DNA of 64,000 nt, from NCBI GenBank assembly GCA_050743365.1, contig JBOGFI010000050.1:2917-66916 (forward strand). Reading direction: 5' to 3'. The DNA comes from Acidimicrobiia bacterium. Lineage in GTDB: Bacteria; Actinomycetota; Acidimicrobiia; IMCC26256; JACDBD01. The notes below the pieces were generated by a model. The model saw only the letters and a program-made list of their open reading frames with translations, ran no database searches and was not told where the DNA came from. Position numbers and translations under genes: made by a program. The first letter of the stretch is position 1, and every line of letters starts with the position of its first letter. This document shows, piece by piece, positions 2,628-37,182 of this stretch.

Positions 2628-2629
2628 CT

Positions 2630-11329: not shown

Positions 11330-12187
11330 CTATGTGCGGGTCGGCTGCCCGCGTCTCTGCCGCCAGGGCGAAGAACGGCCGGACGGCGCGTGTCGACGGA
11401 ACCTGCCGCGGGTCGCCGACTTCTCGCGCGTAGGCGAGCCGGACCAGGGGGATTCGGCTGCCGCCTGACTGGTGCCCTTACGAGGACGGACGGCTAGCGC
11501 GCCGCTCACCTCCTCCAGTGCCGGTACCCGGCGTCCGAACCAGCGGTGGGCCCAGGTGACGGTTCGGCCCCCGAGGAAACGCTCGACCAGGCCGGCGATC
11601 ACGACCAGATCGGCCAGCGGTGACGCGTTGGTCACGTACCACTCGTCGACAGCCAGCTTGAGCGGCAGGACGAGATCGCCGTACACGTCGTCCCCGGGAG
11701 CAGCGTCGGCGAGGAGGTGATCCTCCCAGTCATGGACCAGGACCTGGGACGGACCGGCGATGCCCGGTCGCCCCCGGAGGACGGCTTGCCAGCGCGGATC
11801 TTCCTGGTTGACGTAGGCGGGGGTCTCGGGGCGCGGGCCGATGATCGCCATGGTGCCGGTGACGACGTGTAGGAGCTGGGGAAGCTCGTCGAGCCGGGAG
11901 GCGCGCAGGTATCGCCCCAGACGCGTGATGCGGGTGTCGTCCCGACCTGCAGTCAGCGCGCGGCCGCCGGCAGTCCCGTCGGCCCGAGCGGTCCGCATGG
12001 TCCGCAGCTTGAGCAACGTGAACGGTCGACCGTGGCGCCCGATGCGCCGGAGCCGGACGATCGCTGGTCCCGGGCTCGTTCGCCGGGCGACGCCAGCCAA
12101 AAGGCCGACGAGTGGCAGGAGGGTCACGCCGACCACCGCGGCGACCACACGGTCGAGCGGGTTCCGAACGATGAGCCAGCGGTTCAT
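11330..12187 (-). CDS. Small monotopic phosphoglycosyltransferase (bacterial sugar transferase, PglC/WbaP C-domain type)
   Basis: 285 aa with an N-terminal re-entrant helix (VVAAVVGVTLLPLVGLL). Motifs are PFTLLKLRTM and RLDELPQLLHVVTGTMAIIGPRP. The last ~70 aa are low-complexity. The start forms an ATGA overlap with the DegT stop. Confidence 0.8.
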   Translation of the reverse strand: MNRWLIVRNPLDRVVAAVVGVTLLPLVGLLAGVARRTSPGPAIVRLRRIGRHGRPFTLLKLRTMRTARADGTAGGRALTAGRDDTRITRLGRYLRASRLDELPQLLHVVTGTMAIIGPRPETPAYVNQEDPRWQAVLRGRPGIAGPSQVLVHDWEDHLLADAAPGDDVYGDLVLPLKLAVDEWYVTNASPLADLVVIAGLVERFLGGRTVTWAHRWFGRRVPALEEVSGALAVRPRKGTSQAAAESPWSGSPTREKSATRGRFRRHAPSGRSSPWRQRRGQPTRT

Positions 12188-14947: not shown

Positions 14948-15882
14948 CCCGGAGATGTCGCGATGCTCCGAGAGTTGTGGCCATGGTGCCGACCGCGAAC
15001 GCAGCGCGCTTCGTCGCCGAGACACTGCAATCCCTGGCCGCTCAGGACTATCCCAACCTGGAGATCGTGATTTTCGACGACGCGTCGACCGACGCCACCT
15101 GGGCGATCTGTCGATCGTTCGCCGACGTTGACGCAAGGTTCCATGTCGTGAGGCATCCGTCGGCTCTTGGATGGCCCGGGAACTTGAACGCCTTGCTCGA
15201 GTCGGTGGACGGTGAGTATGCCTTCTTCGCGCCACACGACGATCTCTTCGAGAGATCGTATGTTCGTCGAATGGTCGAGGCGCTCGAGCTGCGATCGGAG
15301 GCAGTGCTGGCCTTCTCGCAAACCCTGCGCTTCGACGACACGGGGCCGCGCGAGTTGCGAACCGGCGAGCTCTCCGCGAGACCCGGCGGACGGATCCGGC
15401 GCGGACTGCGCTACATCTTGATGACGCTCGAGGACGACCGCGCCATTCCGTTCCGCGGCGTCGCTCGCATCAGCGCCCTTCGCCAGGTCGGAGGTCTTCG
15501 TATAACGAACGCCGTCGCGTTCAGCGCGGACGTTCGATGGCTCTTCCGTCTCAACCTCATCGGTCCGTTTGTCCTGGTCCCCGAAACGCTGTGTCAAAAG
15601 CGCGCTCCCCTGGGCGTGATCCACGGGATCGTTTCCCTATTGCCACACGGCAGCGACATCGACCGCTCGGGCCCGCTCAACCGACTCTTGACGAGAGGTC
15701 GAAGCGCGCGTCTCATGATCCTCGAGGCGCTCATGTACGCATCCGAGATCCGAGCTGCGCAATTGCGTGCATCCGAACGATCGGCGCTGCTCGCGGGGGT
15801 GCCAGTGCGAATCGGGCTCGTGTTGCTCCCGCGGCCGATGCGCCCGCGAGCACGACGTCTCCTTGCGCGGCTCTGCAGGTGA
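14944..15882 (+). CDS. GT2 family glycosyltransferase
   Basis: Internal ATG 14944 of ORF 14830..15882, in an ATGA overlap with the upstream stop. VVAMVPTANAARFVAETLQSLAAQDYPNLEIVIFDDASTD is a GT-A N-terminus. Confidence 0.8.
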   Translation: MTRRCRDAPRVVAMVPTANAARFVAETLQSLAAQDYPNLEIVIFDDASTDATWAICRSFADVDARFHVVRHPSALGWPGNLNALLESVDGEYAFFAPHDDLFERSYVRRMVEALELRSEAVLAFSQTLRFDDTGPRELRTGELSARPGGRIRRGLRYILMTLEDDRAIPFRGVARISALRQVGGLRITNAVAFSADVRWLFRLNLIGPFVLVPETLCQKRAPLGVIHGIVSLLPHGSDIDRSGPLNRLLTRGRSARLMILEALMYASEIRAAQLRASERSALLAGVPVRIGLVLLPRPMRPRARRLLARLCR

Positions 15883-15912
15883 GTGTCCAGGCCGTGCCTG
15901 AGGAGGGTGCCG

Positions 15913-16950
15913 ATGACGCTTGACGGCCGCGCCGATCGCCTCCCGCTCGTCTCGGTCGTCATGCCGGTCCGGAACGAGGAGGCCTACCTGGCGCGTTCAC
16001 TCGGTGCAGTCCTTCGCCAGGACTACCCCGCCGACCGCCTGGAGGTGATCGTCGTCGACGGCGCGTCCGACGACCGGACGACAGCGGTTGCCGAGGCGCT
16101 CACGGCCGGGCTCGACGTTCCGCCCATCTCGGTCGTCACCAACCCGGCGGCGATCACGCCGGTCTCCCTGAACCTCGGGATCGAGAAGGCCGCGGGCGAC
16201 ATCATCGTGAGGGTCGACGGGCATTGCGAGATCGCACCGGACTACGTGCGTCGCTGCGTGGATGTCTTGCTCGAGACGGGCGTCGAGTGTGTCGGCGGCG
16301 TCTTCGTCACCGAGGGTGAGACCGAGTCGGCCCGCACCATCGCGGTCGCCCAGAGCTCTCGCTTCGGTGTCGGGAACGTCGCCTTCCGCACCGGTCGAGC
16401 CGACCCCGGTCTCGTCGACACCGTGCCCTTCGGCGCCTGGCCCCGGCGGGTCTTCGACGAGTTCGGGCTCTTCGACGAGGACCTGGTGCGCAACCAGGAC
16501 GACGAGTTCAACTTCCGAGTCATCCAGGCCGGTGGCAGAGTCTGGTACGACCCGACCATCCGGTCGCGCTACTTCAGCCGCGCCACCCTGCCGAAGCTCT
16601 GGCGGCAGTACTTCGAGTACGGCTGCTACAAGGTGCTCGTCGCCAAGAAGCGCGGCGGCGTCGCCTCCGCACGCCACCTCGTGCCAGTTGGGTTCGTCGC
16701 CGCGCTGTCCTGCGGCGCGGTGGCATCGGCTGTGAGCGGCCGCGCCCGATGGCTCCTCGCCGTGGTCGCCCCGTATGCCGTGGCCAACGCGACGATGAGC
16801 CTGCGCCTCGCCTCACGGCACCACGTCCCGGCCCCGCAGCTCGCTGCCGCCTTCGCCACGCTTCACCTCGCCTACGGGAGCGGGTTCACCTGGGGCGCCG
16901 TTCGCTGGCACCTGCACCCGAAGGTCGACAGCCAACGGGCGTGCCCTTGA
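15913..16950 (+). CDS. GT2 family glycosyltransferase with C-terminal membrane spans
   Basis: ORF 15883..16950. ATG 15913 has GAGGAGGG 5 nt upstream. Motifs are VSVVMPVRNEE, VIVVDGASDD and NQDDEFNFR, followed by a hydrophobic tail. Confidence 0.8.
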   Translation: MTLDGRADRLPLVSVVMPVRNEEAYLARSLGAVLRQDYPADRLEVIVVDGASDDRTTAVAEALTAGLDVPPISVVTNPAAITPVSLNLGIEKAAGDIIVRVDGHCEIAPDYVRRCVDVLLETGVECVGGVFVTEGETESARTIAVAQSSRFGVGNVAFRTGRADPGLVDTVPFGAWPRRVFDEFGLFDEDLVRNQDDEFNFRVIQAGGRVWYDPTIRSRYFSRATLPKLWRQYFEYGCYKVLVAKKRGGVASARHLVPVGFVAALSCGAVASAVSGRARWLLAVVAPYAVANATMSLRLASRHHVPAPQLAAAFATLHLAYGSGFTWGAVRWHLHPKVDSQRACP

Positions 16951-18043
16951 GATGCACCATGCCATCGCTGTCGCCGCGCGTGAGATGCATGTCCGTGATC
17001 GGAACGTCTGTCAGGAGAGGGTGGGCGGTCGGAGCTGCAAACGCGAAGTAGTTGGTGGGCCCGACTCGGAAGCCAACTGTCGTCGCTGCATTCAGCCAAC
17101 GTGCACTTGACCAGTTGGCGAACACCAGGTCGACGTCGTGTTCAGCGAGCACGCTAACGCCACCGGCCAGCACGGCCGACTCTTGCCCAGCTCGGCTGAA
17201 CGCGTCGACGATGACACCGACTCGAAGGTCACCGAAGTAGGAATGCTCATGCATCTGCATCGGTGCAATGACCGTCCAGCCCACATCTGAACAAGAGCTC
17301 GCGTCTCGAAACCTGATGCGGACGAACCGATCGTCAGACGCGGGATAGCGGCGATTGAGCGTGACTGCGTCTCGGCACACGCCGGCGCCGATGAGGTCGC
17401 GCGCAGCCTGATACGTTTCAGTCGCCCAGACGCCGAACTCGCGCTCGACGACCGCAGAGACCGAAGCCGGTTTACGCATCAACCTCACCCACGAGCGGTG
17501 CGCGGCAAGTACGAGCTGTGGGATGCCGGTCGACGTCGCGGCGCGGGCAGCGAGCCAGGTCATCCGTCGGCGACGAAGATACCGAAGCTCTCTTGCTATC
17601 CGTCGCGGTCGCAGGCCCAGATAGACGAAAGGGACAGGGGCATGAGCGCACCCCGCTGCAATCATGAACCGCGCCGCGGGCTCGTCAAGGCCGCCAACGC
17701 CAAGCCCCAAGAGCAATGGGTGCCGTATCGTAACGGCGCGACCCAGCTGGAGGGCGGCGAGAGCCTGCCGGCGGTCCACGACACCCTCCGAGATCGGCGC
17801 CTGAATCCATGCACCCCAGCGCTCGCGGTCGCGAACGAAGAACCGCTCATGTACGAGCCGGACGCCCGCCCGTACTTCGCCGTCACGATCGAACGCGACG
17901 AACACGGTTCGTCGCAGCCCGCGATGCGTCTCGCTGTCACCGGGAGGTTGGGGAAGTCGTTCGCTACGTCCGCCAGCGGCGAGACGGGCATTGAACCGCT
18001 CAATTGCCGCTCCGTCGAGGCGTGTAGCGACGCGTACCGGCAT
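16886..18043 (-). CDS. GNAT / FemAB-like (CelD-type) acyltransferase
   Basis: ORF 16886..18151 with preferred ATG 18043 (MPVRVATRLDG). At about 385 aa, the size and the C-terminal GFRVGPTNYFAF segment resemble Acetyltransf_6/FemAB-like EPS proteins. This family call is by-eye and tentative. Its 3' end overlaps the convergent GT2 by ~65 nt. Confidence 0.45.
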   Translation of the reverse strand: MPVRVATRLDGAAIERFNARLAAGGRSERLPQPPGDSETHRGLRRTVFVAFDRDGEVRAGVRLVHERFFVRDRERWGAWIQAPISEGVVDRRQALAALQLGRAVTIRHPLLLGLGVGGLDEPAARFMIAAGCAHAPVPFVYLGLRPRRIARELRYLRRRRMTWLAARAATSTGIPQLVLAAHRSWVRLMRKPASVSAVVEREFGVWATETYQAARDLIGAGVCRDAVTLNRRYPASDDRFVRIRFRDASSCSDVGWTVIAPMQMHEHSYFGDLRVGVIVDAFSRAGQESAVLAGGVSVLAEHDVDLVFANWSSARWLNAATTVGFRVGPTNYFAFAAPTAHPLLTDVPITDMHLTRGDSDGMVHLKGTPVGCRPSGAGASERRPR

Positions 18044-18119
18044 CAGTGAGGATTCCCACGGTCGTAGTGGCCAGGGGATGCACGCTCGGAGCGGATTAGC
18101 CGCGCCAGAAGATTGGGAA

Positions 18120-19730
18120 TCAGGAACCCCCGTTGACCATCTCCAGCTCACCTTTGAGATATCGGCGCGTCAGTTCGCGTCTTTGTAGCTTCCCAGATGG
18201 CGTAAAGGGCAGGTGTCCACGAGCGACGAGGACAACTTGCGAGGGGCTACACGCGGCAACACTGAGTGCGGCCTTGCGGATTTCACGGATCAGCGCGGAC
18301 ACCTCGCTCTGAGCGAGCCGACCGCTCGATTCTGGTTCTGCGGCGACGACCCAATCGCCGGAAGGGAGCCCGAAGACCCCAGTTCGCCCCGCGCGGACCG
18401 CGCCGATGCCCCCCATTGCTTCCTCGACGGCAGGGGCGTAGATGTTGCGTCCTCTTGCTACAACGTAATCGTCACCCCGGCCGCACACGTACAGCCATCC
18501 GTCAGCAATCGCACCGAGATCACCGGTCATCAGCCAACCGTCCGGGTCGGCGAAGGAAGCGCCGCTGGCACCATCGACCCCGATCGATGCACCGCGGACA
18601 GAAACGGGACCGACTGCGCCGGACTCGGCATCGCAGCGCACCTCGTAGCCGCTGATCGCAGGTCCGCTCGAAACGAGACCGGTCACTTCTCTGCTCTCCG
18701 CGGGATCCATCCCTTGAGGCATCAAGCGTTGTTCTGCGAGCGGCAGTGTCGCAACGGTCATTTCCCGCCACTGCGATCCCATGGGAGTCATCGTTGCCGC
18801 GAGCCCTAGCTCGGCCATTCCATAAGCAGGGCAAAATGCAGTCGGACGGAACCCGGCCGTGCCGAATCGATCACTGAAGCCCGTGAGTGTCGACCGTCGG
18901 ATCATTTCTCCACCGACGATTGCACACCGCAACCGTGATAGGTCCAATGCACCCCTCTGGTCTCGTTCAGCGCACAGGCGGTAGCCGAAGTCCGGTGCGG
19001 CCGTGATCGTTGCGGCGCAGTCGCTGATCGCGCTCACCCACGCGCTGGGATTGCGCAAGAAATCGACGGGGTCCAAGAGGATGATGTCACCCTGTCGCGC
19101 CAGCGAAGGGCGGGTTGACGCAAGGCTCGTTAGCAACATTCCGATCAGCCCCATGTCGTGGGACAAGGGAAGCCACGAAACCGGCTTGTCACCTGGTTCT
19201 GGCTGGACCGCGCTGATGATCGCGGCCACATTCGCGCCGAGCTGCCGATCAGTGAGCTTCACCGCCTTTGGTTGATCGGTCGACCCGGAGCTGTACTGGA
19301 TCAGCTCGAAGCCGCTTTCCCGCGGCCCCGCCAACGGAACGCTTCCTAGGTCGGAGTGAGGCCGTACCTCGAGGGTGGTGCCCTCCAGCAGCGGAGCCAC
19401 GTCGTCGCGGGCGACAATCTGGTTCATGCCTTGCGCTTCACATGCGCGTCGCACGAAGCGGAGGTATTCGACCGGGTCGGCTGACCGGGCGGGTAAAGGT
19501 AGCGAGATCAGTTGCGCTCCCGCTTCGATCGCGCCGAGCAGCAACTCAACCGTCGGCCGATCATTGGTCATCAAGGCGGCTACGCCCGGAGAATCGGCGG
19601 ATTTCGAGAAGTAACGCCGACCATCCCCTAGGCACTCGGCGGCAGCAACCGGTAATGCTCCGACGCCGAAGACCAGGCGTGCATTACCGATACCCTCCAG
19701 TACGCCCTCGGACAGGCTCTCAGCCGTCAC
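18120..19730 (-). CDS. Fatty-acyl-AMP ligase-like adenylate-forming enzyme
   Basis: 536 aa with a GTG start. Motifs are YSSGSTDQPKAV (core A3), PAYGMAELG, GDLG and the C-terminal PFTPSGKLQRREL. There is no SD upstream. Confidence 0.8.
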   Translation of the reverse strand: MTAESLSEGVLEGIGNARLVFGVGALPVAAAECLGDGRRYFSKSADSPGVAALMTNDRPTVELLLGAIEAGAQLISLPLPARSADPVEYLRFVRRACEAQGMNQIVARDDVAPLLEGTTLEVRPHSDLGSVPLAGPRESGFELIQYSSGSTDQPKAVKLTDRQLGANVAAIISAVQPEPGDKPVSWLPLSHDMGLIGMLLTSLASTRPSLARQGDIILLDPVDFLRNPSAWVSAISDCAATITAAPDFGYRLCAERDQRGALDLSRLRCAIVGGEMIRRSTLTGFSDRFGTAGFRPTAFCPAYGMAELGLAATMTPMGSQWREMTVATLPLAEQRLMPQGMDPAESREVTGLVSSGPAISGYEVRCDAESGAVGPVSVRGASIGVDGASGASFADPDGWLMTGDLGAIADGWLYVCGRGDDYVVARGRNIYAPAVEEAMGGIGAVRAGRTGVFGLPSGDWVVAAEPESSGRLAQSEVSALIREIRKAALSVAACSPSQVVLVARGHLPFTPSGKLQRRELTRRYLKGELEMVNGGS

Positions 19731-19868
19731 GGAGTGGGCTCATATCACTCATATCGGCTCATTAGGTGAGCGTTACACTACCGTCAGCGCGTCCTCGTGA
19801 CTCCATGCCGCGGATAGGCCGCCACCGCAGGCCGCGTGCGACACCAATGTCGACTCCCAAGCGCGAGT

Positions 19869-20975
19869 TCATCGCTCGTGGCTGCCGAGGACGGTTGGAG
19901 CCCTCGACGCCCGTGGTCCCGCCTGCCATGCATTCGCGGCGAGCCACCGCAGCTGCGACCGCCGCATGGAGCTGCGATGGCCGTCCACGGACTGCCACCC
20001 CCGCTGGTCTCCAACGTGACGGAGTAGCACTGAGGCCGGGACAAACCAGCCGGGAAGGCTCGCCAGCCTGCGAAGGAGTCGAACGCACCGCTCTTCCATC
20101 CGCCCGCTCGGCATACCCCGTCCCACCAGATCGAACCTGGAACCGAGGTGGGTGTGGACGATGCACGCGCCGCCCTCGGCAAGGAGGCGATCTTGGTTGC
20201 GCTCAGAGATGAGCTCGCAAAAGTCCCTGATGCCGGACCCGTGACTCGAGCTGAACCAGTAGCCGACATGAGGCCGGCGAGGATCGTGGTAGGGCATCAG
20301 TGGATCGCAGTTCAGCGTGTTGATATCCGGAAACACCATGTTTCGTACGAACGTGACCCGCGCCTTGCAAACGTCACCCCAGAAGTACGCCGAGCCCGGG
20401 TCATGGCCATACGAGGCGGGCCAGCCGCCTCGGAAGCGCCTCGTCGCCCCGTAAAGCCACCGAACGGGCTGGTCGAAGCGCTCGCGGCCCCAGTAGAGCG
20501 ACTCCGCCTGTCCGACGTGGTTCGCGTGGATCGTCGGATCCGAGCCCGTGACCTCGCGAAAGAAGTCGAGGCCTTCGACTACGCGGTCGCGAACTGAAGG
20601 CCCGTCCGAGACTCCGTGCAACGCAATTTCGAAGCCGTGCCGCTGGAGGGCCTCGATCCAATGCCTGTAGGCGGCATCCTCCAGCGTGTGACCCCCGGTG
20701 TGTCCCGGTCCGTTTGGCCGGAGCGGCCAAACGGTCTTCGTGGTGAGGAGTCCAAGGTCGTACAGAACGTCGTACACGGGTGATGTGTTGGCGACGGTTG
20801 CGCGATCCGTGTCATCGACGATCGTGAAGGCGAACTTGCGCCCATCGGGCCACTGGATACTGTCGCGTCGCCGCGCCACGTCGGCGAGGTTACCGACGAT
20901 TGCACCGACCTGGCTGCCGAGAGGCCCGGGTTCGGCGAAACGGACTGAAGCACGACCACGCTCGCACATGGTCAT
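19869..20975 (-). CDS. Polysaccharide deacetylase-like (NodB-type barrel) protein
   Basis: ORF 19869..21116. The first ATG would overlap the divergent neuB start, so I prefer ATG 20975 or 20969. FAFTIVDDTD and EIALHGVSDG resemble NodB motifs 1 and 2. The assignment is tentative. Confidence 0.45.
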   Translation of the reverse strand: MTMCERGRASVRFAEPGPLGSQVGAIVGNLADVARRRDSIQWPDGRKFAFTIVDDTDRATVANTSPVYDVLYDLGLLTTKTVWPLRPNGPGHTGGHTLEDAAYRHWIEALQRHGFEIALHGVSDGPSVRDRVVEGLDFFREVTGSDPTIHANHVGQAESLYWGRERFDQPVRWLYGATRRFRGGWPASYGHDPGSAYFWGDVCKARVTFVRNMVFPDINTLNCDPLMPYHDPRRPHVGYWFSSSHGSGIRDFCELISERNQDRLLAEGGACIVHTHLGSRFDLVGRGMPSGRMEERCVRLLRRLASLPGWFVPASVLLRHVGDQRGWQSVDGHRSSMRRSQLRWLAANAWQAGPRASRAPTVLGSHER

Positions 20976-21002
20976 CACAGGCGCGGCGAGCTCGCTTCGA
21001 GC

Positions 21003-21029
21003 TTGACTCGCGTGGACCGACACTAATAT
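21003..21029 (+). promoter_or_regulatory. Sigma-70-like promoter candidate for the neuB operon
   Basis: TTGACT (21003-21008), a 15-nt spacer, then TAATAT (21024-21029), about 60 nt upstream of GTG 21088. It is unusually AT-rich for this genome. The spacer is shorter than the optimal 17 nt. Confidence 0.35.
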
Positions 21030-21087
21030 CGGCGGGCGGTCGCCGAGAGCCGCGGCGTCCTTGACGCAGCCCGCTTGAGCTGTCGGG

Positions 21088-22152
21088 GTGTTTCTCGTGA
21101 GTGAGTCGTTGGGCACGGCCTGGTCCGACCTCGTCGAATGGCGCGGTGGGGGCTGCCTGATCGTGGCCGAGGTCGCCCAGACCCACGACGGCAGCCTGGG
21201 TCAAGCTCACGCGTTCATCGATGCCGTCGCCGGGACGGGCGCAGACGCCATCAAGTTCCAGACACATTTGGCGGCAGCCGAGAGTACCCCCGCGGAGCCG
21301 TGGCGGGTCCCGTTCAGCTACGAGGACGAGACCCGCTACACCTACTGGCAACGCATGGAGTTCACCCCCGCGCAATGGGAAGGGCTCGCCCGCCACGCGC
21401 GCGACAAAGAGCTGCTGTTCCTGAGCTCGCCGTTCTCCCTCGAGGCCGTCGACCTCCTCGAGGCCATCGGCATGCCGGCATGGAAGATCGCCTCGGGAGA
21501 GGTGGGAAATACCGCGCTGCTCGATCGCGTCACTGCCACAAGCGCGCCCGTGCTGCTGTCCAGCGGGATGAGCGACCTCGCCGAGCTCGACACCGCCGTC
21601 GAGCGCGTCCGAGCCGCCGGCAACGACGTGGTCGTGCTGCAGTGCGCTACCACCTATCCGTGCCCACCGGAGTCGGTCGGCCTGAATCTCCTCGCCGAGC
21701 TCCGCGACCGCTACGCGTGCCCGGTCGGCCTCTCCGACCACTCCGCCACGATCTACGCCGGCCTCGCCGCCGCGACGCTCGGCGCCGCGGTGCTCGAGGT
21801 GCACGTCACCCTGAGTCGTGAGATGTTCGGTCCCGACGTACCCGCATCGCTCACTACCGCCGAGCTCGGCCAGCTCGTCGACGGAGTGCGGTTCATCGAA
21901 GCCATGCTCTCGAACCCGGTGGACAAAAACGCCGCTGCGACCCACCTCGAGCCGACGCGGCGGCTCTTCACCCGAAGCGTTGTCGCACGATCCGACCTCG
22001 AGGCCGGTCACGTGCTCACCGCGGATGACCTCGTTGCCAAGAAGCCGGGCACGGGCATCCCCGCCACCCGGTTGCCCGAGCTGGTGGGACGGCGCCTCCG
22101 CCGTGCCATCGACCGCGATGCGCTGCTCGCCCCCGAGGACCTGGACTCCTGA
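21088..22152 (+). CDS. neuB: N-acetylneuraminate (nonulosonate) synthase
   Basis: 354 aa: LIVAEVAQTHDGSL, GADAIKFQTH, WKIASGE, GLSDHS, and a C-terminal SAF-like domain. Confidence 0.85.
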   Translation: MFLVSESLGTAWSDLVEWRGGGCLIVAEVAQTHDGSLGQAHAFIDAVAGTGADAIKFQTHLAAAESTPAEPWRVPFSYEDETRYTYWQRMEFTPAQWEGLARHARDKELLFLSSPFSLEAVDLLEAIGMPAWKIASGEVGNTALLDRVTATSAPVLLSSGMSDLAELDTAVERVRAAGNDVVVLQCATTYPCPPESVGLNLLAELRDRYACPVGLSDHSATIYAGLAAATLGAAVLEVHVTLSREMFGPDVPASLTTAELGQLVDGVRFIEAMLSNPVDKNAAATHLEPTRRLFTRSVVARSDLEAGHVLTADDLVAKKPGTGIPATRLPELVGRRLRRAIDRDALLAPEDLDS

Positions 22153-22153
22153 C

Positions 22154-23311
22154 GTGGCCCGTCGCAAGGTCTGCGTGGTCGTGACCGCCCGCCCGAGTTA
22201 CAGCCGGATCAAGACGGCGCTCCGCGCGATCGCCGACCACCCGGACCTCGATCTGCAGGTGGTCGTCGCGGCTTCCGCCCTGCTCGACCGTTACGGCAAC
22301 GCAGTAGACCAGGTTCGCTCCGACGGATTCGGGATCGACCGCGAGATCTTCATGGTGCTCGAGGGCGAGACCCCCATGGCGATGGCCAAGACCACCGGCC
22401 TCGGGCTGCTCGAGCTGGCCACCGCGTTCGACAACCTCGCGCCCGACGTCGTCGTGACCGTCGCCGACCGCTACGAGACCCTGGCGACGGCGGTGGGTGC
22501 CGCCTACCTGAACATCCCACTTGCCCACGTCCAGGGAGGCGAGGTCACGGGCTCGATCGACGAGAAGGTCCGCCATGCAGTGACGAAGCTCGCCGACCTT
22601 CACCTGGTGTCGACCGAGCGGGCGGCCGAACGCGTCATCCGCATGGGCGAGGACCCCGACACGGTCTTCGTCACCGGCTGTCCCTCGATCGACCTCGCCG
22701 CCGAGATCCTCGACGCGCCCGAGGTGGACTTCGACCCGTACGAGCGCTACGGGGGTGTCGGGGCGTCCTTCGACCTGAACTCCGACTACCTGGTGGTCCT
22801 CCAGCATCCCGTGACCACCGAATACGAGGAGGCGCGGGCCCATGTCACCGAGACGCTCCACGCCGTGGATAAGTCCGGGCTGCCCACGTTGTGGTTCTGG
22901 CCCAACGTCGACGCCGGGTCCGACGGCACCTCCGGCGGGATCCGAGCCTTTCGCGAGCAGCACCAGCCAGCGGGCATTCACTTCTTCAAGAACATGGCCC
23001 CGAGCGACTTCATCCGGATCGTCTACAACTCCCGGGCCATCGTCGGGAACTCGAGCATGGCCGTCCGGGAATGCTCGTTCCTCGGGGTGCCGGCGGTGAA
23101 CATCGGGAGCCGGCAGGCCGGTCGCGAGCGCGGCACGAACCTGGTCGACGTCGGCTACGACCGGTCCGCGATCGTGAGCGCGATCAAGGCGCTCGGCCGC
23201 CGTTCCGGTCCCGGGACCGACCTCACCTACGGCGACGCCAAGGCCGGTCCGCGCATCGCCGAGCGCCTTGCCGAGGTCGAGCTCCGCTACGACAAGAAGC
23301 TCGCCTACTGA
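22154..23311 (+). CDS. neuC: UDP-N-acetylglucosamine 2-epimerase (hydrolysing)
   Basis: GTG 22154 inside ORF 21818..23311, 1 nt after the neuB stop. Motifs are VCVVVTARPSYSRI and HVQGGEVTGSIDEKVRHAVTKL. Confidence 0.8.
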   Translation: MARRKVCVVVTARPSYSRIKTALRAIADHPDLDLQVVVAASALLDRYGNAVDQVRSDGFGIDREIFMVLEGETPMAMAKTTGLGLLELATAFDNLAPDVVVTVADRYETLATAVGAAYLNIPLAHVQGGEVTGSIDEKVRHAVTKLADLHLVSTERAAERVIRMGEDPDTVFVTGCPSIDLAAEILDAPEVDFDPYERYGGVGASFDLNSDYLVVLQHPVTTEYEEARAHVTETLHAVDKSGLPTLWFWPNVDAGSDGTSGGIRAFREQHQPAGIHFFKNMAPSDFIRIVYNSRAIVGNSSMAVRECSFLGVPAVNIGSRQAGRERGTNLVDVGYDRSAIVSAIKALGRRSGPGTDLTYGDAKAGPRIAERLAEVELRYDKKLAY

Positions 23312-24021
23312 TGCGGGTACTGGGGCTCATACCCGCACGCGGAGGCTCGAAGGGGATCCAGCGCAAGAACGTCAGGGCGCTCGGAGGACGGCCGCTCCTC
23401 GCCTACACGGCAGAGGCCGCGCTGTCGGCGAGGACGCTCAGCCGCGTGGTGCTCTCCACCGAAGACGAGGAGATCGCCGACCTCGGCCGGGCCCTTGGTC
23501 TCGACGTGCCGTTCCTGCGGCCGGCCGCGCTCGCCGACGACGAGGCCCCGATGCTGTCGGTCGTCCAGCACGTCCTCAGCGCGCTGGAGGGCGCGGGCGA
23601 CCGATACGACGCCGTCTGCTTGCTCCAGCCCACCAACCCACTGCGGACCGCCGAGACGATCGACGCGTGCGTCCAGCTCCTCGAGCGCAGCGGCGCCGAC
23701 GCCGCCGTCACGGTCTTGCCCATTCCCACCGAGCACAATCCCCACTGGGCATTCGAGGTGGGAGCCGACGGCTTTCTGCGACTGACCACCGGCGAGGCGC
23801 AGCCCATCACCCGCCGCCAGGACCTTCCACCGGCATTCCACCGTGAGGGGTCCGTTTACGTCACTCGCGTTCCCGTCGTGCTCGCAGGCAGCCTCTACGG
23901 CGGGCGCCTCGTCGGCCTCGAAGTGCGCCCCGACCAGAGCGTGAACCTCGACGAGCCAGGTGACTGGGCACGCGCCGAGACGCTTCTCGCTGCAGGCGCG
24001 AGGGCACCGGCCGGATCGTGA
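23311..24021 (+). CDS. neuA: Acylneuraminate cytidylyltransferase (CMP-nonulosonate synthetase)
   Basis: ATG 23311 inside ORF 22891..24021, in a TGATG overlap with neuC. The N-terminus reads MRVLGLIPARGGSKGIQRKN, and LLQPTNPLR is present. Confidence 0.85.
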   Translation: MRVLGLIPARGGSKGIQRKNVRALGGRPLLAYTAEAALSARTLSRVVLSTEDEEIADLGRALGLDVPFLRPAALADDEAPMLSVVQHVLSALEGAGDRYDAVCLLQPTNPLRTAETIDACVQLLERSGADAAVTVLPIPTEHNPHWAFEVGADGFLRLTTGEAQPITRRQDLPPAFHREGSVYVTRVPVVLAGSLYGGRLVGLEVRPDQSVNLDEPGDWARAETLLAAGARAPAGS

Positions 24022-25115
24022 CCTCCTTCCCGAAGGTGGTCTTCGTGGCCGGCACCCTCGGGGTCGGCGGCGCCGAGCGCCAGCTCTACTACATGGCCAG
24101 AACGCTTCGGGAGCACGGCGCCGAGCCGGAGGTCGTGTCGTTGACCCAGGGGGAACACTGGGAGCCGCGAATCCGCGAGCTGGGAGTACCCGTGCACTAC
24201 GCCGGCGCGGTTCACTCGCGGCCGGTTCGCGCGGCTCGAATCGCGTTTCTCGCCCGTCGGATCCGACCGGACGTGGTGCAGAGCTCCCACTTCTACACGA
24301 ACCTCTACGCCAGCCTCGCGGCCCGAGCAGCCGGCGCCCGCGACATCGGGGCAATCCGAAACGACGCGATCCGGACCGTCAGAGATGCCGGTCGGTGGGG
24401 ACAAGCATTGCTGCGTGTCCCTCGCGCCCTCGCCGTGAACTCGACCCGCGCCCGCCATCAGGCGATCGGCATGGGAGTCCACGCCGATCGGGTCGTCTAC
24501 CTTCCCAGCGTGGTGGACACATCGCTGTTCACGCCCGCGCCTGCCGTCGAGGGGCCCGAGACCGTCGTGCTGAGCGTCGGGCGCCTCGTGGAGCAAAAGC
24601 GGCACGACCGCTTCCTGCGGGTACTCCGTCGGGTCATCGACCGCGCACCGTGCGGCACCAGAGTGCGCGGCATCATCCTGGGCGACGGGCCGTTGGGCGC
24701 AACACTCGAGGCGCAAGCTGCAGAGCTCGGGCTCGGCGGCGAGGCGCTCACGTTTCTCGCCGATCCCGACAGCCCGCCTGTGTACCAGTCGGCGAGCATC
24801 TTCGTCCTCGCGTCCGACTACGAAGGCACGCCCAATGTGATCCTCGAAGCCATGGCGACCGGGCTCCCCCTTGTGGCCTGCGATGTCGGAGAGGTCGCTG
24901 CCCTCGTCGAAGAGGGGGTTACCGGATACATCCTCCACCCCGGCGACGAGGACCGTACGGTCGAAAGAGTGCTGGAGCTCGTGCGTGACCCGGCAGAGCG
25001 GCGGCGCCTCGGAGCCGAGGGCCGGCGGCGAGTCGAGCACGGGCGGTCGATCGCAAGGCTCGCCGTCGAGCTGAGCACGCTCTATGAGCGGTGTGGCACA
25101 GCGGTGGGCCGCTGA
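24018..25115 (+). CDS. GT4 family glycosyltransferase
   Basis: 365 aa with a GTGA overlap with neuA. Motifs are GGAERQ and the EX7E region SDYEGTPNVILEAMATGLPLV. Confidence 0.8.
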   Translation: MTSFPKVVFVAGTLGVGGAERQLYYMARTLREHGAEPEVVSLTQGEHWEPRIRELGVPVHYAGAVHSRPVRAARIAFLARRIRPDVVQSSHFYTNLYASLAARAAGARDIGAIRNDAIRTVRDAGRWGQALLRVPRALAVNSTRARHQAIGMGVHADRVVYLPSVVDTSLFTPAPAVEGPETVVLSVGRLVEQKRHDRFLRVLRRVIDRAPCGTRVRGIILGDGPLGATLEAQAAELGLGGEALTFLADPDSPPVYQSASIFVLASDYEGTPNVILEAMATGLPLVACDVGEVAALVEEGVTGYILHPGDEDRTVERVLELVRDPAERRRLGAEGRRRVEHGRSIARLAVELSTLYERCGTAVGR

Positions 25116-25117: not shown

Positions 25118-26879
<1,762 letters not shown>

Positions 26880-26902
<23 letters not shown>

Positions 26903-28373
26903 CGGTCTCGACGCTCGCCCGCGCCTGCTGGCCGCCTTGCCGCGAGGTGAGGCGATACGGAACTTCGTGTACTCGGGCATCCTCGATGCCATCGCCGAGT
27001 CCGTCGACCTTGAGGTCGCAACCGTGCTGCCAAATGACGAGCTCGCGGAATTGCTGCGATCCCTCTACGGCGACATCCTCCCGCTCGAACCGTGGCGAGA
27101 CCGCTGGGGTGTCGGGGCGATCCGTGAGCTGCTCGACCTCGCCCATGGGCGCTGGGTGTGGTCGGAGGCGGCTCAGGAACGTTGGCGGCTGCGGAACCTT
27201 GAAGCGACGACAGCGCGGGCCCGGGTCAACCGGGCGGCTAAGCGAACGGCCGCACGCGTGCTCGCCCGACCCAGCGGTCTATCGCTCCTCGAACGAGCCT
27301 ACGACGGGGCGAGCGCTCGTTGGCCCTCGAGCCGCGTGTTCCGGGAGCGGTTGGCGGCGTCACCACCGTCCCTCGTCTTCAACGCCTCGCAGGTGCACGG
27401 TGAAACGGTCCGAGGGCTCATCACGGCGGCCCGATCGCTCGCCATCCCGACCGCCGCGTTCCTCTTCTCCTGGGACAACCTGACCTCCCAAGGGCGGATC
27501 ATTCCGAGCTATGACTGCTACCTCGCTTGGAGCGAGACGATGCGCGACGACCTCTTGCGGATGTATCCATCGGTCGACCCGGCGGCCGTCTTCGTGACTG
27601 GGACACCACAGTTCGACGCCCACTTCCGGACCGAGCATGCATGGTCGAGAGAGGAGTATTGCGGTCGGATCGGCGCCGATCCCGAGCGTCCGATCGTTCT
27701 CTACAGCACGGGTATGCCAAACCACATGCCCGGTGAGCCGTCGATCGTCGAGGGCATCGCCGACCGTCTGGCGCGTCGCGGCGATCTCGGTCGCCCCCAG
27801 CTCGTGGTCAGGGTGTACGCAAAGGACCGGACGGGCCGCTTCCACGACCTCGCTCGACGCCGTCCCGACATCATCTTCCCGCCGGTCCCCTGGGAGCCCA
27901 ACTGGCTCACACCCCTACCGGAGGACACCGCGCTGTGGTCGAACATCCTCCGGCACGCCGATGTCGGCATCAACGTCGCCTCGACCGTCTCTTTGGAACT
28001 GTGCATGTTCGACCGGCCCGTAGTGAACGTCGGATACAACCCGCCGGGCGTGCCTACTTGGCAGTTGGACTACTCGCGCTACTACCGCTTCGATCACTAC
28101 CGCCCGGTCGTGGCCAGCGGCGCCGTCGAGGTCGCCTCATCGCCCGACAGCCTGATGGACGCCGTTGCGCAGGCGATCAGCAGACCCTCGCTCTGCTCTC
28201 CTATGCGCCAACAACTGCTTGCACGACTCTTTGGCGAGCATCTGGACGGTAAGGCACGCCAGCGCGTTGCGGAGCGCCTCGTCGAGCTGACGACTGCAGC
28301 CGGATCCATGCAGACGTTGCGCCGCTCGGGGACCTCCGAGCCCCGAGGGAGCGCTGCTCCGAGCCGCACGTGA
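26880..28373 (+). CDS. Uncharacterised GT-B-like transferase (candidate nonulosonate or glycerophosphate transferase)
   Basis: 497 aa with a GTG start that overlaps the asnB end by 23 nt. It has a two-Rossmann-like layout. PIVLYSTGMPNH and ILRHADVGINVASTVSLELCMFDRPVVNV resemble the acceptor/donor half motifs of TagF-like and other GT-B enzymes. No family was recognised with certainty. Confidence 0.4.
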
Positions 28374-29434
28374 CTTCAGCCGGCCTGCGAGCGAGCGAGG
28401 CGATGGACACGGCTCCCTGTCTGCGGGGCGGACCGTTGGCAGATCCTGGATGGGCAATCGTGCACGCTACGTCTTCGCTTGGAAGTTCGGACCGGGCGTC
28501 GATGATCCGAGCCGCGCTCATCCCTCTCGTGTTCGACGGCATGGAGTCGGCGTTCGCCTCGCGGGAGGACCGTCTCCCCCTCGTACAGAGGATGCTCAGC
28601 GACGCTGCCAATTCGACTGCAGCCATGACCGGGAGCGGTCTTGCCGCGCTTGGTGCAGCCGTCGATCAGACTCCGCGTCCCATCGACGCTGTCGATACGG
28701 GCGTGGCGGCCACAACCGGTGCACACTACGGCCGTCTATTCGAGCGCTTCTCCTCGAAGTCGTTCTGGGACGAACCGCGCGAGTTGTTGAGAACACGTCT
28801 CGAGCGCAACGGAATCCCACTCGATTGCATCCGCGACCGGTCGGTCCTCGACGCCAGCTGCGGCGGCGGTCGCTACTCCGTTGCGTGGCGACTCTTGGGG
28901 GCTCGGAGCGTCACTGGGCTCGACGTCTCGGCGACGGGTATCGGCAGTGCCCGCGACCGCGTTCTGAGCGCGGGGATCGATGGCGTGTCGTTCACACAGG
29001 GGGACGTCCTGGACCTCCCCTGCGAGGATGACGCTTTCGACATCGTGTTCTCCAACGGCGTGCTGCACCACACGGTCGAATGGCAGCGTGGCGTGCAAGA
29101 ACTCGTACGTGTTCTCCATCCCGGTGGTATGGGCTGGTTGTATCTGATCGAGAAGCCGGGCGGCCTGTTCTGGGATCTGATCGAGATTCTTAGGGTCATA
29201 ATGCACGGCGAGAGCAGCCAACGCGTCCGAACCGTCCTTCAGTCCTTCGGCTTTTCAGCGAATCGGGTGTACTACATGCTCGACCACGTGATGGTGCCCA
29301 TCAACAAGCGCCTCACCGCTGATGAGATCACGGACGAGCTCCACCTGGCGGGGGCATCGGGTATCCGACGGTTGGAGCGCGGCGTCGACTTCGATCGCGT
29401 TGAGGCAACCACCGGGGTGATCCATTCGTACTAG
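28370..29434 (+). CDS. Class I SAM-dependent methyltransferase
   Basis: 354 aa with a GTGA overlap with the upstream gene. The SAM motif is VLDASCGGGRYS, followed by DIVFSNGVLHH. The ~120-aa N-terminal extension is unassigned. Confidence 0.7.
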   Translation: MTSAGLRASEAMDTAPCLRGGPLADPGWAIVHATSSLGSSDRASMIRAALIPLVFDGMESAFASREDRLPLVQRMLSDAANSTAAMTGSGLAALGAAVDQTPRPIDAVDTGVAATTGAHYGRLFERFSSKSFWDEPRELLRTRLERNGIPLDCIRDRSVLDASCGGGRYSVAWRLLGARSVTGLDVSATGIGSARDRVLSAGIDGVSFTQGDVLDLPCEDDAFDIVFSNGVLHHTVEWQRGVQELVRVLHPGGMGWLYLIEKPGGLFWDLIEILRVIMHGESSQRVRTVLQSFGFSANRVYYMLDHVMVPINKRLTADEITDELHLAGASGIRRLERGVDFDRVEATTGVIHSY

Positions 29435-29585
29435 TCAAGTACGGCGTCGGTGAACAGCGCTTCGTCTTCTCCAAGAAGAGACTGGCGTAAACGCGCGGTT
29501 AGGAGGCCGAACCCCGGGGCCCGGCGGACACCGGAGGTCGTCCTGTGAAAACCTACGGTGTTCGCGACGCGGCAAAGGGGATGCT

Positions 29586-29840
29586 GTGAGGCTGTCCGAG
29601 GCTCAGCGTCTTCTTCGTGACCTTCTGGCCGCGCATACGGGCCTCGACCCCGAGGCCATCGATCTAGACATGCGGCTTGTAGAGGATCTGGGGCTCGATT
29701 CGGTCGATGCCGTGGAGCTATTGACTTCGACCGAGCGGCAAACGGGACTGCTATTCGAGGTCGAGCAGCTCGAGGACATCCAGACTGTGGGTGACGTGGT
29801 GGATCGTCTAATGGAGGTGTCGATCACGGATCCCGACTGA
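29586..29840 (+). CDS. Acyl/peptidyl carrier protein
   Basis: 84 aa with a GTG start and AAAGGGGA upstream. The phosphopantetheine attachment motif is LGLDSVDAVELL. Confidence 0.75.
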   Translation: MRLSEAQRLLRDLLAAHTGLDPEAIDLDMRLVEDLGLDSVDAVELLTSTERQTGLLFEVEQLEDIQTVGDVVDRLMEVSITDPD

Positions 29841-29972
29841 AGGAAAGGCGAGTGGTTATGACGCCACGCGCCGAACAACTGGCGCGTCGCTACTGAACCA
29901 GTGCGGGTCGGCTGAACTACGAGGTGCGGGCGCAGGTAACACCCGAGTGCAACGCCCGAGGCTCCGCGTCCC

Positions 29973-31820: not shown

Positions 31821-31945
31821 GGTGGGTCGGATCCCGCTCGTCGGGTGCGCTGTCCGCCCCCTTACTCGCGGAGGATACGAGAGCGTACACGTCGCCGCGA
31901 AGGCGACCGATCGGCCTCAAGAGCATTCAACTAGGCTGCCTGCAG

Positions 31946-35758: not shown

Positions 35759-35795
35759 CGTCCACCATCGATCCCCGTACGCGCTCCGCGTCGCC

Positions 35796-37133: not shown

Positions 37134-37182
37134 CCGGTCGCTGTGATCACACGGGCCTGAGGTCCCAAGAACGCGCCCGCCA

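Follow-up and report, generated by a model that had tools for sequence, protein, structure and literature searches.

In Escherichia coli K1 and Neisseria meningitidis, neuC (siaA), neuB (siaC), and neuA (siaB) are clustered in a surface-polysaccharide locus (UTI89 locus) and encode a three-step path that starts from a UDP-HexNAc. The same three families, as LegG, LegI, and LegF, serve legionaminic acid synthesis in an Acinetobacter K locus (L086), where LegB, LegC, and LegH lie side by side, and in Legionella pneumophila, whose NeuC, NeuB, and NeuA produce CMP-Leg5Ac7Ac from UDP-Bac2Ac4Ac while the dehydratase gene, lpg0966, lies outside the locus (PMC3766260). A related epimerase domain occurs in human GNE (PDB 4ZHT), fused to a ManNAc kinase domain, and the BFO_1060 family of Tannerella forsythia, with Tanf_01245 and TFUB4_00887, comprises Pse/Leg transferases (PMC5420450). 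Chemical detection of nonulosonic acids now extends to most environmental microbial communities and to the EPS of wastewater granules, and for uncultured phyla of soil and water, most of the underlying genes and exact sugars have yet to be assigned.

The cassette described here lies in a 64,000-nucleotide stretch of Acidimicrobiia DNA (the window), within a surface-polysaccharide locus of ~ 34 kb (~ 11.3–45.5 kb) in which Pfam and NCBIfam searches identified a PGT, three GT2 and three GT4 enzymes, Wzy_C, a Wzz/kinase-like protein, an ABC exporter, and a DUF4012/GT4 protein. It consists of three genes:

21088..22152, + strand, NeuB-family nonulosonate synthase, TIM barrel plus SAF domain
22154..23311, + strand, hydrolyzing UDP-HexNAc 2-epimerase of the NeuC/GNE type
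23311..24021, + strand, CMP-nonulosonate synthetase of the NeuA/LegF/PseF class, 236 aa

The first-pass annotation had recognized this trio from four motifs, a 1-nt gap, and a TGATG overlap, all of which were recovered. IVAEVAQTHDGSL and ADAIKFQTH are encoded within 21088–22152, HVQGGEVTGSIDEKVRH within 22154–23311, and GLIPARGGSKGIQRKN within 23311–24021. On the DNA, a single c separates the neuB stop codon (TGA, 22150–22152) from the neuC start (GTG, 22154), and the A of the neuC stop (TGA, 23309–23311) is the first base of the neuA start (ATG, 23311–23313), giving a 1-nt overlap. An alternative GTG start at 21097 yields a 351-aa NeuB, the form annotated in the MAG; a protein of the window is 100% identical to one from the Acidimicrobiia MAG GCA_975305365.1. 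We put the probability that the trio is a CMP-nonulosonate cassette feeding a surface glycan at about 0.9.

The synthase contains both NeuB domains (PF03102, 223 bits, residues 44–276; SAF, PF08666, 43.7 bits, residues 296–352), and its best PDB match is N. meningitidis NeuB at 157 bits, with SpsE at 135 and PseI at 124. The meningococcal enzyme's catalytic, metal, and PEP residues are all present; in its numbering, E25, K53, Q55, K129, S132, E134, S154, Y186, S213, H215, E234, H236, and D247 are kept. Catalytic Glu25, Glu134, and Glu234, the metal residues His215 and His236, and the PEP residues Lys53, Lys129, Ser132, Ser154, and Ser213 are likewise conserved in 82–83 of 83 members of the clade to which the protein belongs. 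On the N-acetylneuraminate synthase model TIGR03569, it scored 300.5 bits, under the cut-off of 399.65. This model fails to distinguish Neu from Leg synthases, since E. coli NeuB scored 456.8 and Acinetobacter LegI 393.9. The window NeuB is 29–32% identical to proven Neu5Ac synthases and 25% identical to Acinetobacter LegI, the lowest value obtained.

The epimerase passed the NeuC_NnaA model TIGR03568 (357.7 bits, cut-off 235.9) and matched Epimerase_2 (PF02350) at 224.5 bits. Passing TIGR03568 leaves its substrate unfixed, because Acinetobacter LegG passes as well (453 bits, with E. coli NeuC at 441). Identity was highest to the epimerase domain of human GNE (35%), followed by A. baumannii LegG (30%) and E. 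coli NeuC (29%), with bit scores of 229 for GNE versus 182 for LegG. The equivalents of GNE D112/R113, D143, H220, and S301/S302 are retained, as DRY (D-R), GSIDE (D), and GNSS (S-S) of the window protein align with D112/R113, D143, and S301/S302, respectively. Arg113 and Ser302 distinguish hydrolyzing from non-hydrolyzing 2-epimerases (PMC4793188), and the window enzyme is of the hydrolyzing type at both. It also shares with GNE a GGEV(T/S)G(S/T)ID(E/D) segment that lacks the extra residue of E. coli NeuC and Acinetobacter LegG, but differs in having no fused ManNAc kinase domain and in carrying Gln at the position of GNE Glu134.

The synthetase matched CTP_transf_3 (PF02348, 74.3 bits), and the N-terminal PARxGSKG(I/L)xxKN motif is present as IPARGGSKGIQRKN. 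Its PDB matches were the CMP-NeuAc synthetases of Vibrio cholerae (113 bits) and N. meningitidis (89 bits). Identity is 32% with Acinetobacter LegF and 28% with E. coli NeuA, whose C-terminal esterase domain the window protein lacks. Among the NCBIfam models, no sugar-specific one passed (PseF, 148.6 bits against a cut-off of 205.7). Overall, relative to E. coli K1 and N. meningitidis, the trio preserves the families, the three-step logic, and the placement in a polysaccharide locus, but at only 28–32% identity and with a NeuB below the curated cut-off. Unlike E. coli K1, the window has no NeuD, NeuE, or NeuS by tblastn and no KpsMT-type export genes.

Pseudaminic acid was considered and is excluded in practice. 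Its route uses PseG rather than a NeuC-type enzyme, and here a NeuC-type enzyme is coupled to the synthase. The PseI model gave the window NeuB 233 bits, below both its own cut-off of 340 and the NeuB model score of 300, and no dehydratase or acetyltransferase was found in the window.

That absence was also claimed in the first-pass annotation for the 4,6-dehydratase and the N-acetyltransferase, and it held in Pfam searches of the called ORFs and in six-frame tblastn. No match in the window at E ≤ 1e-5 was obtained with Acinetobacter LegB, LegH, PtmE, PtmF, or PtmA or with E. coli NeuD, and of the legionaminic early set (LegB/PglF, LegC/PglE, LegH/PglD), the window offers only a DegT protein with a 26% match to Acinetobacter LegC. 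Neither a ROK kinase nor a HAD phosphatase turned up in the window or among conserved neighbors. The DegT protein is, as had been noted, the sole aminotransferase found in the window, and it belongs to a second module outside the cassette:

11330..12187, − strand, small Bac_transf phosphoglycosyl transferase (priming enzyme), PF02397, 136 bits
12184..13371, − strand, DegT-family sugar aminotransferase, PF01041, 326 bits

The DegT gene overlaps the downstream phosphoglycosyl transferase gene by 4 nt, and the two best NCBIfam models for its product, ArnB and PseC, scored below their cut-offs. A DegT aminotransferase needs a keto-sugar from a dehydratase, and as the window has none, a sugar dehydratase is presumably encoded elsewhere in the genome. 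The pair recurs in locus L072. There and in L031, the aminotransferase gene of the homologous pair has a dehydratase-like gene no more than ~ 1 kb downstream of it. Absence from 64 kb is thus weak evidence, as the dehydratase serving DegT is itself outside the window.

These observations bear directly on a legionaminic route, in which NeuC would act as LegG on UDP- or GDP-diNAcBac, NeuB as LegI, and NeuA as LegF, with the dehydratase, the N-acetyltransferase, and perhaps a dedicated aminotransferase encoded beyond the window, or with the window DegT shared with the priming-sugar module. The L. pneumophila trio, which also sits apart from its dehydratase, provides a precedent, and the remote dehydratase implied by DegT would exist in any case. 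Neither TIGR03568 nor TIGR03569 can tell the two routes apart, the NeuC and NeuA identities run marginally toward LegG and LegF over their E. coli counterparts, and JGI names many clade members N,N'-diacetyllegionaminate synthase, although these names are automatic. Against this, the window lacks any LegB, LegH, or PtmE/F/A homologue; DegT is distant from LegC, is translationally coupled to the priming enzyme, and lies 8 kb from the cassette on the opposite strand; and NeuB is least like LegI while NeuC is most like GNE. The Acinetobacter locus shares the three families but at 25–32% identity, and its adjacent LegB/LegC/LegH(/PtmE/F/A) set is missing from the window and from 83 relatives. We regard a legionaminic product as possible but on the doubtful side.

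The wider distribution of the cassette was surveyed in 84 loci, comprising the window's own contig copy and 83 relatives with flanks of up to 10 kb. The trio belongs to a deep, uncharacterized clade whose members so far come only from uncultured soil and water phyla, at 58–71% identity, including Acidobacteriota, Chloroflexota, Gemmatimonadota, Nitrospirota, Binatia, Myxococcota, Planctomycetota, and Acidimicrobiia. NeuC was present in 80 of the 84 loci (67% identity) and NeuA in 72, no more than 60 nt separated the NeuB stop from the NeuC start in 49/74, and the trio was conserved as a unit at 49–67% identity across many phyla. LegB-, LegC-, and LegH-like genes occurred together in none of the 83 related loci, and 54 had no such gene at all. 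Frequent neighbors were AsnB, 2-hydroxyacid dehydrogenase, and methyltransferase genes, often between neuC and neuA. The cassette in the window is a new example of a kind common in environmental bacteria, and the first-pass view that such sugars are sparsely characterized in free-living high-GC Gram-positives overstated their rarity, as NeuB homologues are predominantly environmental (PMC8208679). With its candidate transferase, which has no family annotation, the locus clearly illustrates a cassette that many phyla have in common, and a sugar assignment for it would extend to thousands of database entries now labelled inconsistently as N-acetylneuraminate or diacetyllegionaminate synthase.

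Phylogenetic placement, proposed in the first-pass annotation as a means of choosing among the NeuB, LegI, and PseI clades, instead put the window NeuB in a separate clade, neither Neu nor Leg. The clade was monophyletic in 100/100 NJ bootstraps and grouped with meningococcal NeuB in 56/100, never with the pair formed by E. coli NeuB and Acinetobacter LegI. Those two are 41% identical, nearer to each other than E. coli NeuB is to the window protein (29%), so neither the family models nor the tree settle the sugar; likewise, E. coli NeuC is 39% identical to Acinetobacter LegG and 29% to the window NeuC. On the reference sets compared, a single one for Leg and three for Neu, the trio lies at roughly the same distance from proven Neu5Ac enzymes (25–35% identity) and from proven legionaminic enzymes.

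One position sets the clade apart. Arg314 of the SAF domain, which contacts the N-acetyl group of ManNAc and is conserved in other SAF-containing NeuBs (PMC8208679, PMC11339185), is Arg in the N. meningitidis and E. coli NeuBs, Acinetobacter LegI, and SpsE, but aligns with Lys in the window protein and in 83/83 clade members. Lys at this position in every clade member is a new observation here. Asn74, in the β2–α2 loop, contacts the C6 hydroxyl of ManNAc in Neu5Ac synthases (PMC11339185); it has no clear counterpart here, and its column, in a poorly aligning loop, reads as Tyr or Glu in the window NeuB, is variable in the clade, and is Gly in E. coli NeuB. An alternative product would be a nonulosonic acid distinct both from plain Neu5Ac and from Leg/Pse, with the clade NeuB, through Lys314 and a different β2–α2 loop, accepting a differently substituted 2-acylamido-mannose or making a stereo- or acyl-variant that the cassette-travelling genes of relatives would tailor further. 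The substitution affects the one SAF-domain contact conserved elsewhere while every other catalytic residue is kept, and the clade is both monophyletic and below the curated cut-off; AsnB, the dehydrogenase, and methyltransferases are frequent beside the cassette, and untargeted surveys of environmental microbes list many nonulosonate masses that lack an assignment (PMC8157484). Weighing against it, the NeuC active site is GNE-like, and R314K of the meningococcal enzyme is still active on ManNAc according to PMC6795526, citing Joseph 2013, so that Lys314 is compatible with ordinary chemistry. Such a variant sugar seems distinctly unlikely.

Of the first-pass reading that the polymer carries a sialic-acid-type sugar, a real and complete late-stage CMP-nonulosonate module stands, with the early Leg/Pse genes missing from the window, and the identity of the sugar as Neu5Ac is not established. 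A Neu5Ac-type, ManNAc-derived sugar is nonetheless still favored on comparative grounds, at somewhat better than even odds, given that no related locus has the full legionaminic set within 10 kb and that the nearest characterized relatives are human GNE and meningococcal NeuB. The GNE-like NeuC would hydrolyze and epimerize UDP-GlcNAc to ManNAc, NeuB would form Neu5Ac, or a closely related 5-acylamido sugar, from ManNAc and PEP, and NeuA would form the CMP-sugar. The known biosynthesis of such sugars is unchanged by this locus.

Downstream of neuA, four tightly packed genes are followed by a carrier protein gene, confirming the order reported initially:

24018..25115, + strand, GT4 glycosyltransferase, Glycos_transf_1 (105.6 bits) and Glyco_transf_4, GTGA overlap with neuA
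25118..26902, + strand, AsnB-type glutamine-dependent amidotransferase, TIGR01536 (368 bits, above cut-off), Asn_synthase and GATase_7, starting Met-Cys-Gly-Ile
26880..28373, + strand, unannotated GT-B-fold protein (fam7), candidate CMP-nonulosonate transferase or polymerase
28370..29434, + strand, SAM-dependent methyltransferase, Methyltransf_11/25, N-terminal extension of ~ 130 aa
29586..29840, + strand, acyl/peptidyl carrier protein, 84 aa, phosphopantetheine-site motif DSVDAVELL read in the translation

No sialyltransferase of the canonical families GT38, GT42, GT52, or GT80 was found in the window, where tblastn was run with E. coli NeuS and an Acinetobacter GT52 protein. This might suggest that the three genes supply ManNAc or free Neu5Ac to some other process, or that they are an inactive or decaying remnant, and that the polymer lacks nonulosonate. 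We consider this very improbable, as the three ORFs are intact and tightly coupled with conserved catalytic residues, the unit persists across phyla, and the same gene string holds a co-travelling GT-B protein related to the validated T. forsythia family.

That GT-B protein had no Pfam domain at default thresholds. Its model has a pLDDT of 90.6 (AlphaFold) and a GT-B fold by Foldseek, and its only family-level match was BFO_1060, confined to residues 211–280 (36.5 bits, 3e-9, cut-off 200). TagB/TagF-type similarity is common to it and the T. forsythia transferases, with weak Glyphos_transf matches in 15/25 family members (best E 1e-9) and a PDB profile match to TarL (E 0.023). A difference is that, in the subgroup to which the window protein belongs, Tyr replaces the His of the HP motif, which reads RPHP in the consensus of the wider family. 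The family lies near the cassette in 30–31 of 83 loci, a co-occurrence that makes the protein a likely transferase. In the favored Neu5Ac-type scheme, this TagB/TagF-like protein, three genes downstream, would probably add the CMP-sugar to a lipid-linked glycan made by the GT4/GT2 enzymes, and the amidotransferase, methyltransferases, and ligase/carrier-protein genes would probably decorate the polymer. The organism is thus predicted to bear an acidic cell-surface polymer, possibly amidated, methylated, or acylated. It is a speculative and rather unlikely extension that cassette and GT-B protein form an uncharacterized, very widespread environmental sialylation system, in which the Lys314 synthase leads to an undescribed nonulosonic acid variant or Neu5Ac enters a teichulosonic-type polymer through a new class of CMP-sugar transferase.

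The close spacing continues through the string, supporting the earlier proposal that the trio heads a co-directional series of genes in the surface-polysaccharide locus. Junctions are GTGA at 24018–24021 (neuA/GT4), a 2-nt gap between the GT4 stop (25113–25115) and ATG 25118 of AsnB, a 23-nt overlap of the AsnB stop (TAA, 26900–26902) with GTG 26880 of the GT-B gene (in-frame TTG 26937 is an alternative start), GTGA at 28370–28373 (GT-B/methyltransferase), and a 151-nt gap before the carrier protein gene. For AsnB, the longest-ORF start at 25091 was rejected in favor of ATG 25118, which with Cys-Gly-Ile gives the canonical start. Strand and spacing suggest co-transcription as an operon, and a terminator scan found no internal terminator above chance within the string. 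A promoter scan using a 16–18 nt spacer rule reported none, and a weak promoter-like element was read in the 112-nt divergent intergenic region upstream of neuB:

21003..21029, + strand, TTGACT-15 nt-TAATAT

Its 15-nt spacer falls outside the rule and was missed for that reason, and we treat it as a lead only. Among the downstream products, AsnB has homologues near the cassette in 27/84 loci (median 59% identity), and the methyltransferase is 53% identical over 345 aa to a full-length homologue in L057.

A sequence check found the three nonulosonic acid ORFs where the first-pass annotation had put them, with the motifs it quoted, at the head of eight genes on one strand:

21088-22152, plus strand: NeuB (PF03102 plus SAF)
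22154-23311, plus strand: NeuC (Epimerase_2; TIGR03568 at 357.7 bits, cut-off 235.9)
23311-24021, plus strand: NeuA (CTP_transf_3)
24018-25115, plus strand: GT4 gene (family assignment)
25118-26902, plus strand: AsnB (TIGR01536, above cut-off)
26880-28373, plus strand: GT-B-like gene (no Pfam match)
from 28370, plus strand: methyltransferase gene (family assignment)
29586-29840, plus strand: carrier protein, 84 aa (DSVDAVELL motif; preceded by a 151-nt gap)

Reading of the DNA bore out the close junctions described for the cassette: the TGA of neuB (22150-22152) is followed by the GTG of neuC at 22154, the TGATG overlap of neuC and neuA has one base of the NeuC stop in common with the NeuA ATG at 23311, and neuA and the GT4 gene share a GTGA overlap (24018-24021). 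The true start of AsnB is the ATG at 25118, followed by Cys-Gly-Ile and set 2 nt beyond the GT4 stop (25113-25115); the GTG of the next gene lies at 26880, against an AsnB stop at 26900-26902, and a GTGA at 28370 joins that gene to the methyltransferase gene. A convergent ABC exporter gene terminates at 29973. The divergent intergenic region 5′ of neuB is 112 nt long and contains TTGACT-15-TAATAT (21003-21029), which was rejected by the promoter scan. The promoter and terminator scan returned no sigma-70-type site and a single terminator-like match, within the methyltransferase gene, which is below chance expectation. With no promoter site accepted, the co-transcription that we infer for the eight genes therefore rests on strand and spacing.

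For comparison, neu genes of E. coli K1 (strain UTI89) were taken for Neu5Ac and an Acinetobacter K locus for legionaminic acid; the LegG of that locus is 96% identical to PDB 5XVS. In pairwise alignments, the window NeuB is 32% identical to N. meningitidis NeuB, 29% to E. coli NeuB and 25% to Acinetobacter LegI; NeuC is 35% identical to human GNE, 30% to LegG and 29% to E. coli NeuC; and NeuA is 32% identical to LegF and 28% to E. coli NeuA. E. coli NeuB shares 41% identity with LegI, and E. coli NeuC 39% with LegG. Calling the sugar by curated models was rejected, as these score proven legionaminic enzymes as high as proven Neu5Ac enzymes (TIGR03569: E. coli NeuB 457, LegI 394, window NeuB 300; TIGR03568: E. 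coli NeuC 441, LegG 453, window NeuC 358). The curated models agree that enzymes of the two routes are inseparable at this level. Phylogenetic placement of NeuB, proposed earlier as a way to tell the sugar, gave a clade of its own (100/100, neighbor joining) and no call between the two routes. E. coli NeuB pairs with LegI at 95/100, and support for a union of the window clade with meningococcal NeuB is only 56/100 with a small set of references (E. coli, N. meningitidis, Acinetobacter LegI and B. subtilis SpsE, without C. jejuni or L. pneumophila), making a nearest-neighbor assignment inconclusive. The placement is therefore with neither group, and the window NeuB belongs to a deep, separate lineage.

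In NeuB, all catalytic, metal and PEP ligands of the meningococcal enzyme are kept except Arg314, which lies in the SAF domain, binds the N-acetyl group of ManNAc and is reported to be the sole conserved catalytic residue of that domain (PMC8208679, PMC11339185). Position 314 is lysine in the window NeuB and throughout the clade (83 of 83 members), and arginine in the N. meningitidis and E. coli enzymes, LegI and SpsE. The replacement was rejected as proof of another substrate: in engineered N. meningitidis NeuB, R314K is reported to be active and R314A is not (PMC6795526), and Lys314 is therefore taken as a signature of the clade. NeuC has a GNE-like GGEVTGSIDE segment together with equivalents of Arg113 and Ser302, which mark hydrolysing enzymes (PMC4793188). 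At the position of GNE Glu134, a 4-OH contact, the window NeuC has Gln, and E. coli NeuC and LegG each have His (PMC4793188), so that the position is non-discriminating; as the NeuB beta2-alpha2 loop, which holds the Asn74 C6-OH contact of Neu5Ac synthases, could not be aligned reliably, discrimination of the two routes at the residue level failed.

A NeuB protein search returned at least 8000 candidates, and JGI names among the matches listed were divided between 'N-acetylneuraminate synthase' and 'diacetyllegionaminate synthase'. The window NeuB is 100% identical to a protein in the Acidimicrobiia MAG GCA_975305365.1. When a single genome of each species was scanned, 80 relatives were returned, with identities of 58-71%. 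Every one is an uncultured MAG; they come from Acidobacteriota, Chloroflexota, Gemmatimonadota, Nitrospirota, Binatia, Myxococcota, Planctomycetota and Armatimonadota and include an Acidimicrobiaceae MAG. Across 84 cassette loci (the window's own contig copy and 83 relatives), tblastn located NeuC in 80 (median identity 67%), NeuA in 72 (49%), AsnB in 27 (median 59%) and ORF 26880-28373 in 17; by blastp and clustering, the family of this last ORF is present in 30-31 loci.

The statement that the window encodes no 4,6-dehydratase or N-acetyltransferase held for the window by Pfam and six-frame tblastn. Among the called ORFs, Pfam detected neither a dehydratase of the extended-SDR type nor an acetyltransferase of the hexapeptide or GNAT type. 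The Acinetobacter locus carries a dehydratase, an aminotransferase, LegG, LegI, a PglD-type acetyltransferase, PtmE, PtmF, LegF and PtmA side by side, and its proteins matched only NeuC, NeuB, NeuA and, weakly, DegT (26%) in the window. LegB-, LegC- and LegH-like genes (dehydratase, aminotransferase and N-acetyltransferase) occurred together within 10 kb in none of the 83 related loci, and 54 of the 83 had no legionaminic-specific gene at all. This result is the chief evidence in favor of a route direct from UDP-GlcNAc and counts against legionaminic acid; we place the probability that the sugar is of the Neu5Ac type slightly above even, at about 0.55. Some other nonulosonate is an unlikely product, and a sugar that is made and never incorporated is very improbable.

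A legionaminic route, which we consider distinctly less probable than Neu5Ac, has a precedent in L. pneumophila, where neuC, neuB and neuA make CMP-Leg5Ac7Ac with the dehydratase encoded outside the LPS locus (PMC3766260). In the window, the DegT gene overlaps a small PglC-like phosphoglycosyl transferase gene by 4 nt (11330-13371, minus strand), an overlap suggesting that the pair may be a priming module for a 4-amino sugar. Such a pair requires a keto-sugar. Two related loci have a homologous pair with a LegB-like dehydratase gene about 1 kb or less downstream of its aminotransferase gene (L072 5365-8912; L031 6028-8974), and no such gene stands beside the pair in the window. The genome therefore almost certainly encodes a sugar dehydratase outside the window, which speaks for the legionaminic route. 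Pseudaminic acid is effectively excluded, because its synthesis involves no NeuC-type enzyme and because the PseI model gives a lower score. The animal-type route through ManNAc-6-P has no support: the window and the conserved neighbours yielded neither a kinase nor a phosphatase. Streptomyces Kdn clusters are not known to have a NeuC partner. A Kdn route of this type is unlikely, the NeuB of S. scabiei having no SAF domain (PMC8208679).

The window cassette would work like the CMP-Neu5Ac module of E. coli K1 and N. meningitidis or its legionaminic twin. It belongs to the three enzyme families, and to no sugar-specific subfamily for which sequence offers a test. Both nonulosonic acids and NeuB homologues are known to occur commonly in non-pathogenic bacteria of the environment, actinobacteria among them (PMC8157484, PMC8208679), and the cassette is thus of a known type. 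Mildly new is the large clade from uncultured phyla, which combines a Lys314 NeuB with a GNE-like NeuC and NeuA, often with AsnB and a TagF-like GT-B protein.

For ORF 26880-28373, the earlier label of GT-B-like is supported by a confident AlphaFold model (40-sequence alignment, pLDDT 90.6, pTM 0.88), which by Foldseek matches GT-B proteins (E ~1e-12, TM ~0.5, 11-16% identity). Its sole NCBIfam match is short and sub-threshold (BFO_1060, 36.5 bits, E 3e-9), to a Tannerella forsythia family with a TagB-type domain genetically shown to transfer a pseudaminic or legionaminic acid derivative (PMC5420450). Glyphos_transf (TagB/TagF) matched 15 of 25 family members weakly (best E 1e-9), the family profile reached TarL in the PDB at E 0.023, and all 1547 relatives in a database search are named 'hypothetical'. 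TagF-type enzymes use donors with a CMP leaving group. As the window has no cytidylyltransferase other than NeuA, the simplest reading is that this ORF is a candidate CMP-nonulosonate transferase or polymerase.

Clustering of all neighbouring ORFs placed an ABC-2 permease immediately upstream of neuB in 40 loci, with a Wzt-like ATPase in 29, a PCP/kinase in 28, a Wza-like protein in 22, an SDR of the epimerase type that lacks the dehydratase TDE motif in 23 and a 2-hydroxyacid dehydrogenase in 18; DegT, hexapeptide acetyltransferase and GFO/IDH/MocA proteins were only occasional neighbours. In relatives with outer membranes (L002-L004 and 40 other related loci), the Wzm-like permease usually precedes the cassette, about 1 kb upstream of neuB, and the Wzt-like ATPase, PCP/kinase and Wza lie nearby, neighbours that would fit an ABC-transporter-dependent polymer, as the Legionella O-antigen and K1 capsule are. 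The window instead has Wzy_C and an MsbA/PglK-type exporter. AsnB travels with the cassette at unusually high identity, usually just after neuA (e.g., L023 4696-6435); a uronic acid and the nonulosonate carboxylate are candidate substrates. Several Chloroflexota relatives have a second NeuB paralogue 5-8 kb downstream (L017 16898-17950, L024 17337-18383, L030 15468-16514, L042 17411-18460, L077 15958-17004 and L081 15517-16563), resembling animal Neu5Ac-9-P synthase with Ser for Arg314 and Asp for Glu134, and some other relatives (e.g., L046, L048 and L076) have PtmF- and PtmA-like genes at the same position. Either may represent a second, different nonulosonate pathway in the locus.

The region from about 11.3 to 45.5 kb is a surface-polysaccharide locus. 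Besides the phosphoglycosyl transferase-DegT pair it holds three GT2 and three GT4 genes, an FAD oxidoreductase, two AMP-binding ligases, Wzy_C, a Wzz/P-loop protein, an MsbA/PglK-like ABC exporter, a DUF4012/GT4 protein and two more methyltransferases; the genes on either side belong to unrelated metabolism and regulation. G+C is 0.61-0.67 within it (14000-22000 and 28000-42000) against 0.70-0.74 in the flanks. Low G+C is typical of surface-glycan loci, and the dip possibly reflects horizontal origin. The two AMP-binding (fatty-acyl-AMP-ligase-like) enzymes and the free-standing carrier protein (16886-21116, minus strand; 29586-29840; 35745-37133), with a 421-aa protein (16886-18151, minus strand) and a DUF2334-like 368-aa protein (19869-20975), suggest a module for acylating the polymer or the sugar. 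The 421-aa protein had no match in Pfam at E<=5 or in a PDB search, and its single-sequence AlphaFold model (pLDDT 31) was unusable. A stretch of about 4.8 kb (45519-50314) that separates the polysaccharide locus from an ECF-type sigma factor gene (50314-50820) has no Pfam-annotatable ORF; codon-position GC (third position ~0.8) supports a 654-aa ORF there (47409-49373, plus strand), for which no family was found, as a real gene. At 1296-3967 (minus strand) lies a tandem pair of paralogues of 443 and 445 aa, each an alpha/beta-hydrolase fused to adenylate/guanylate cyclase domains.
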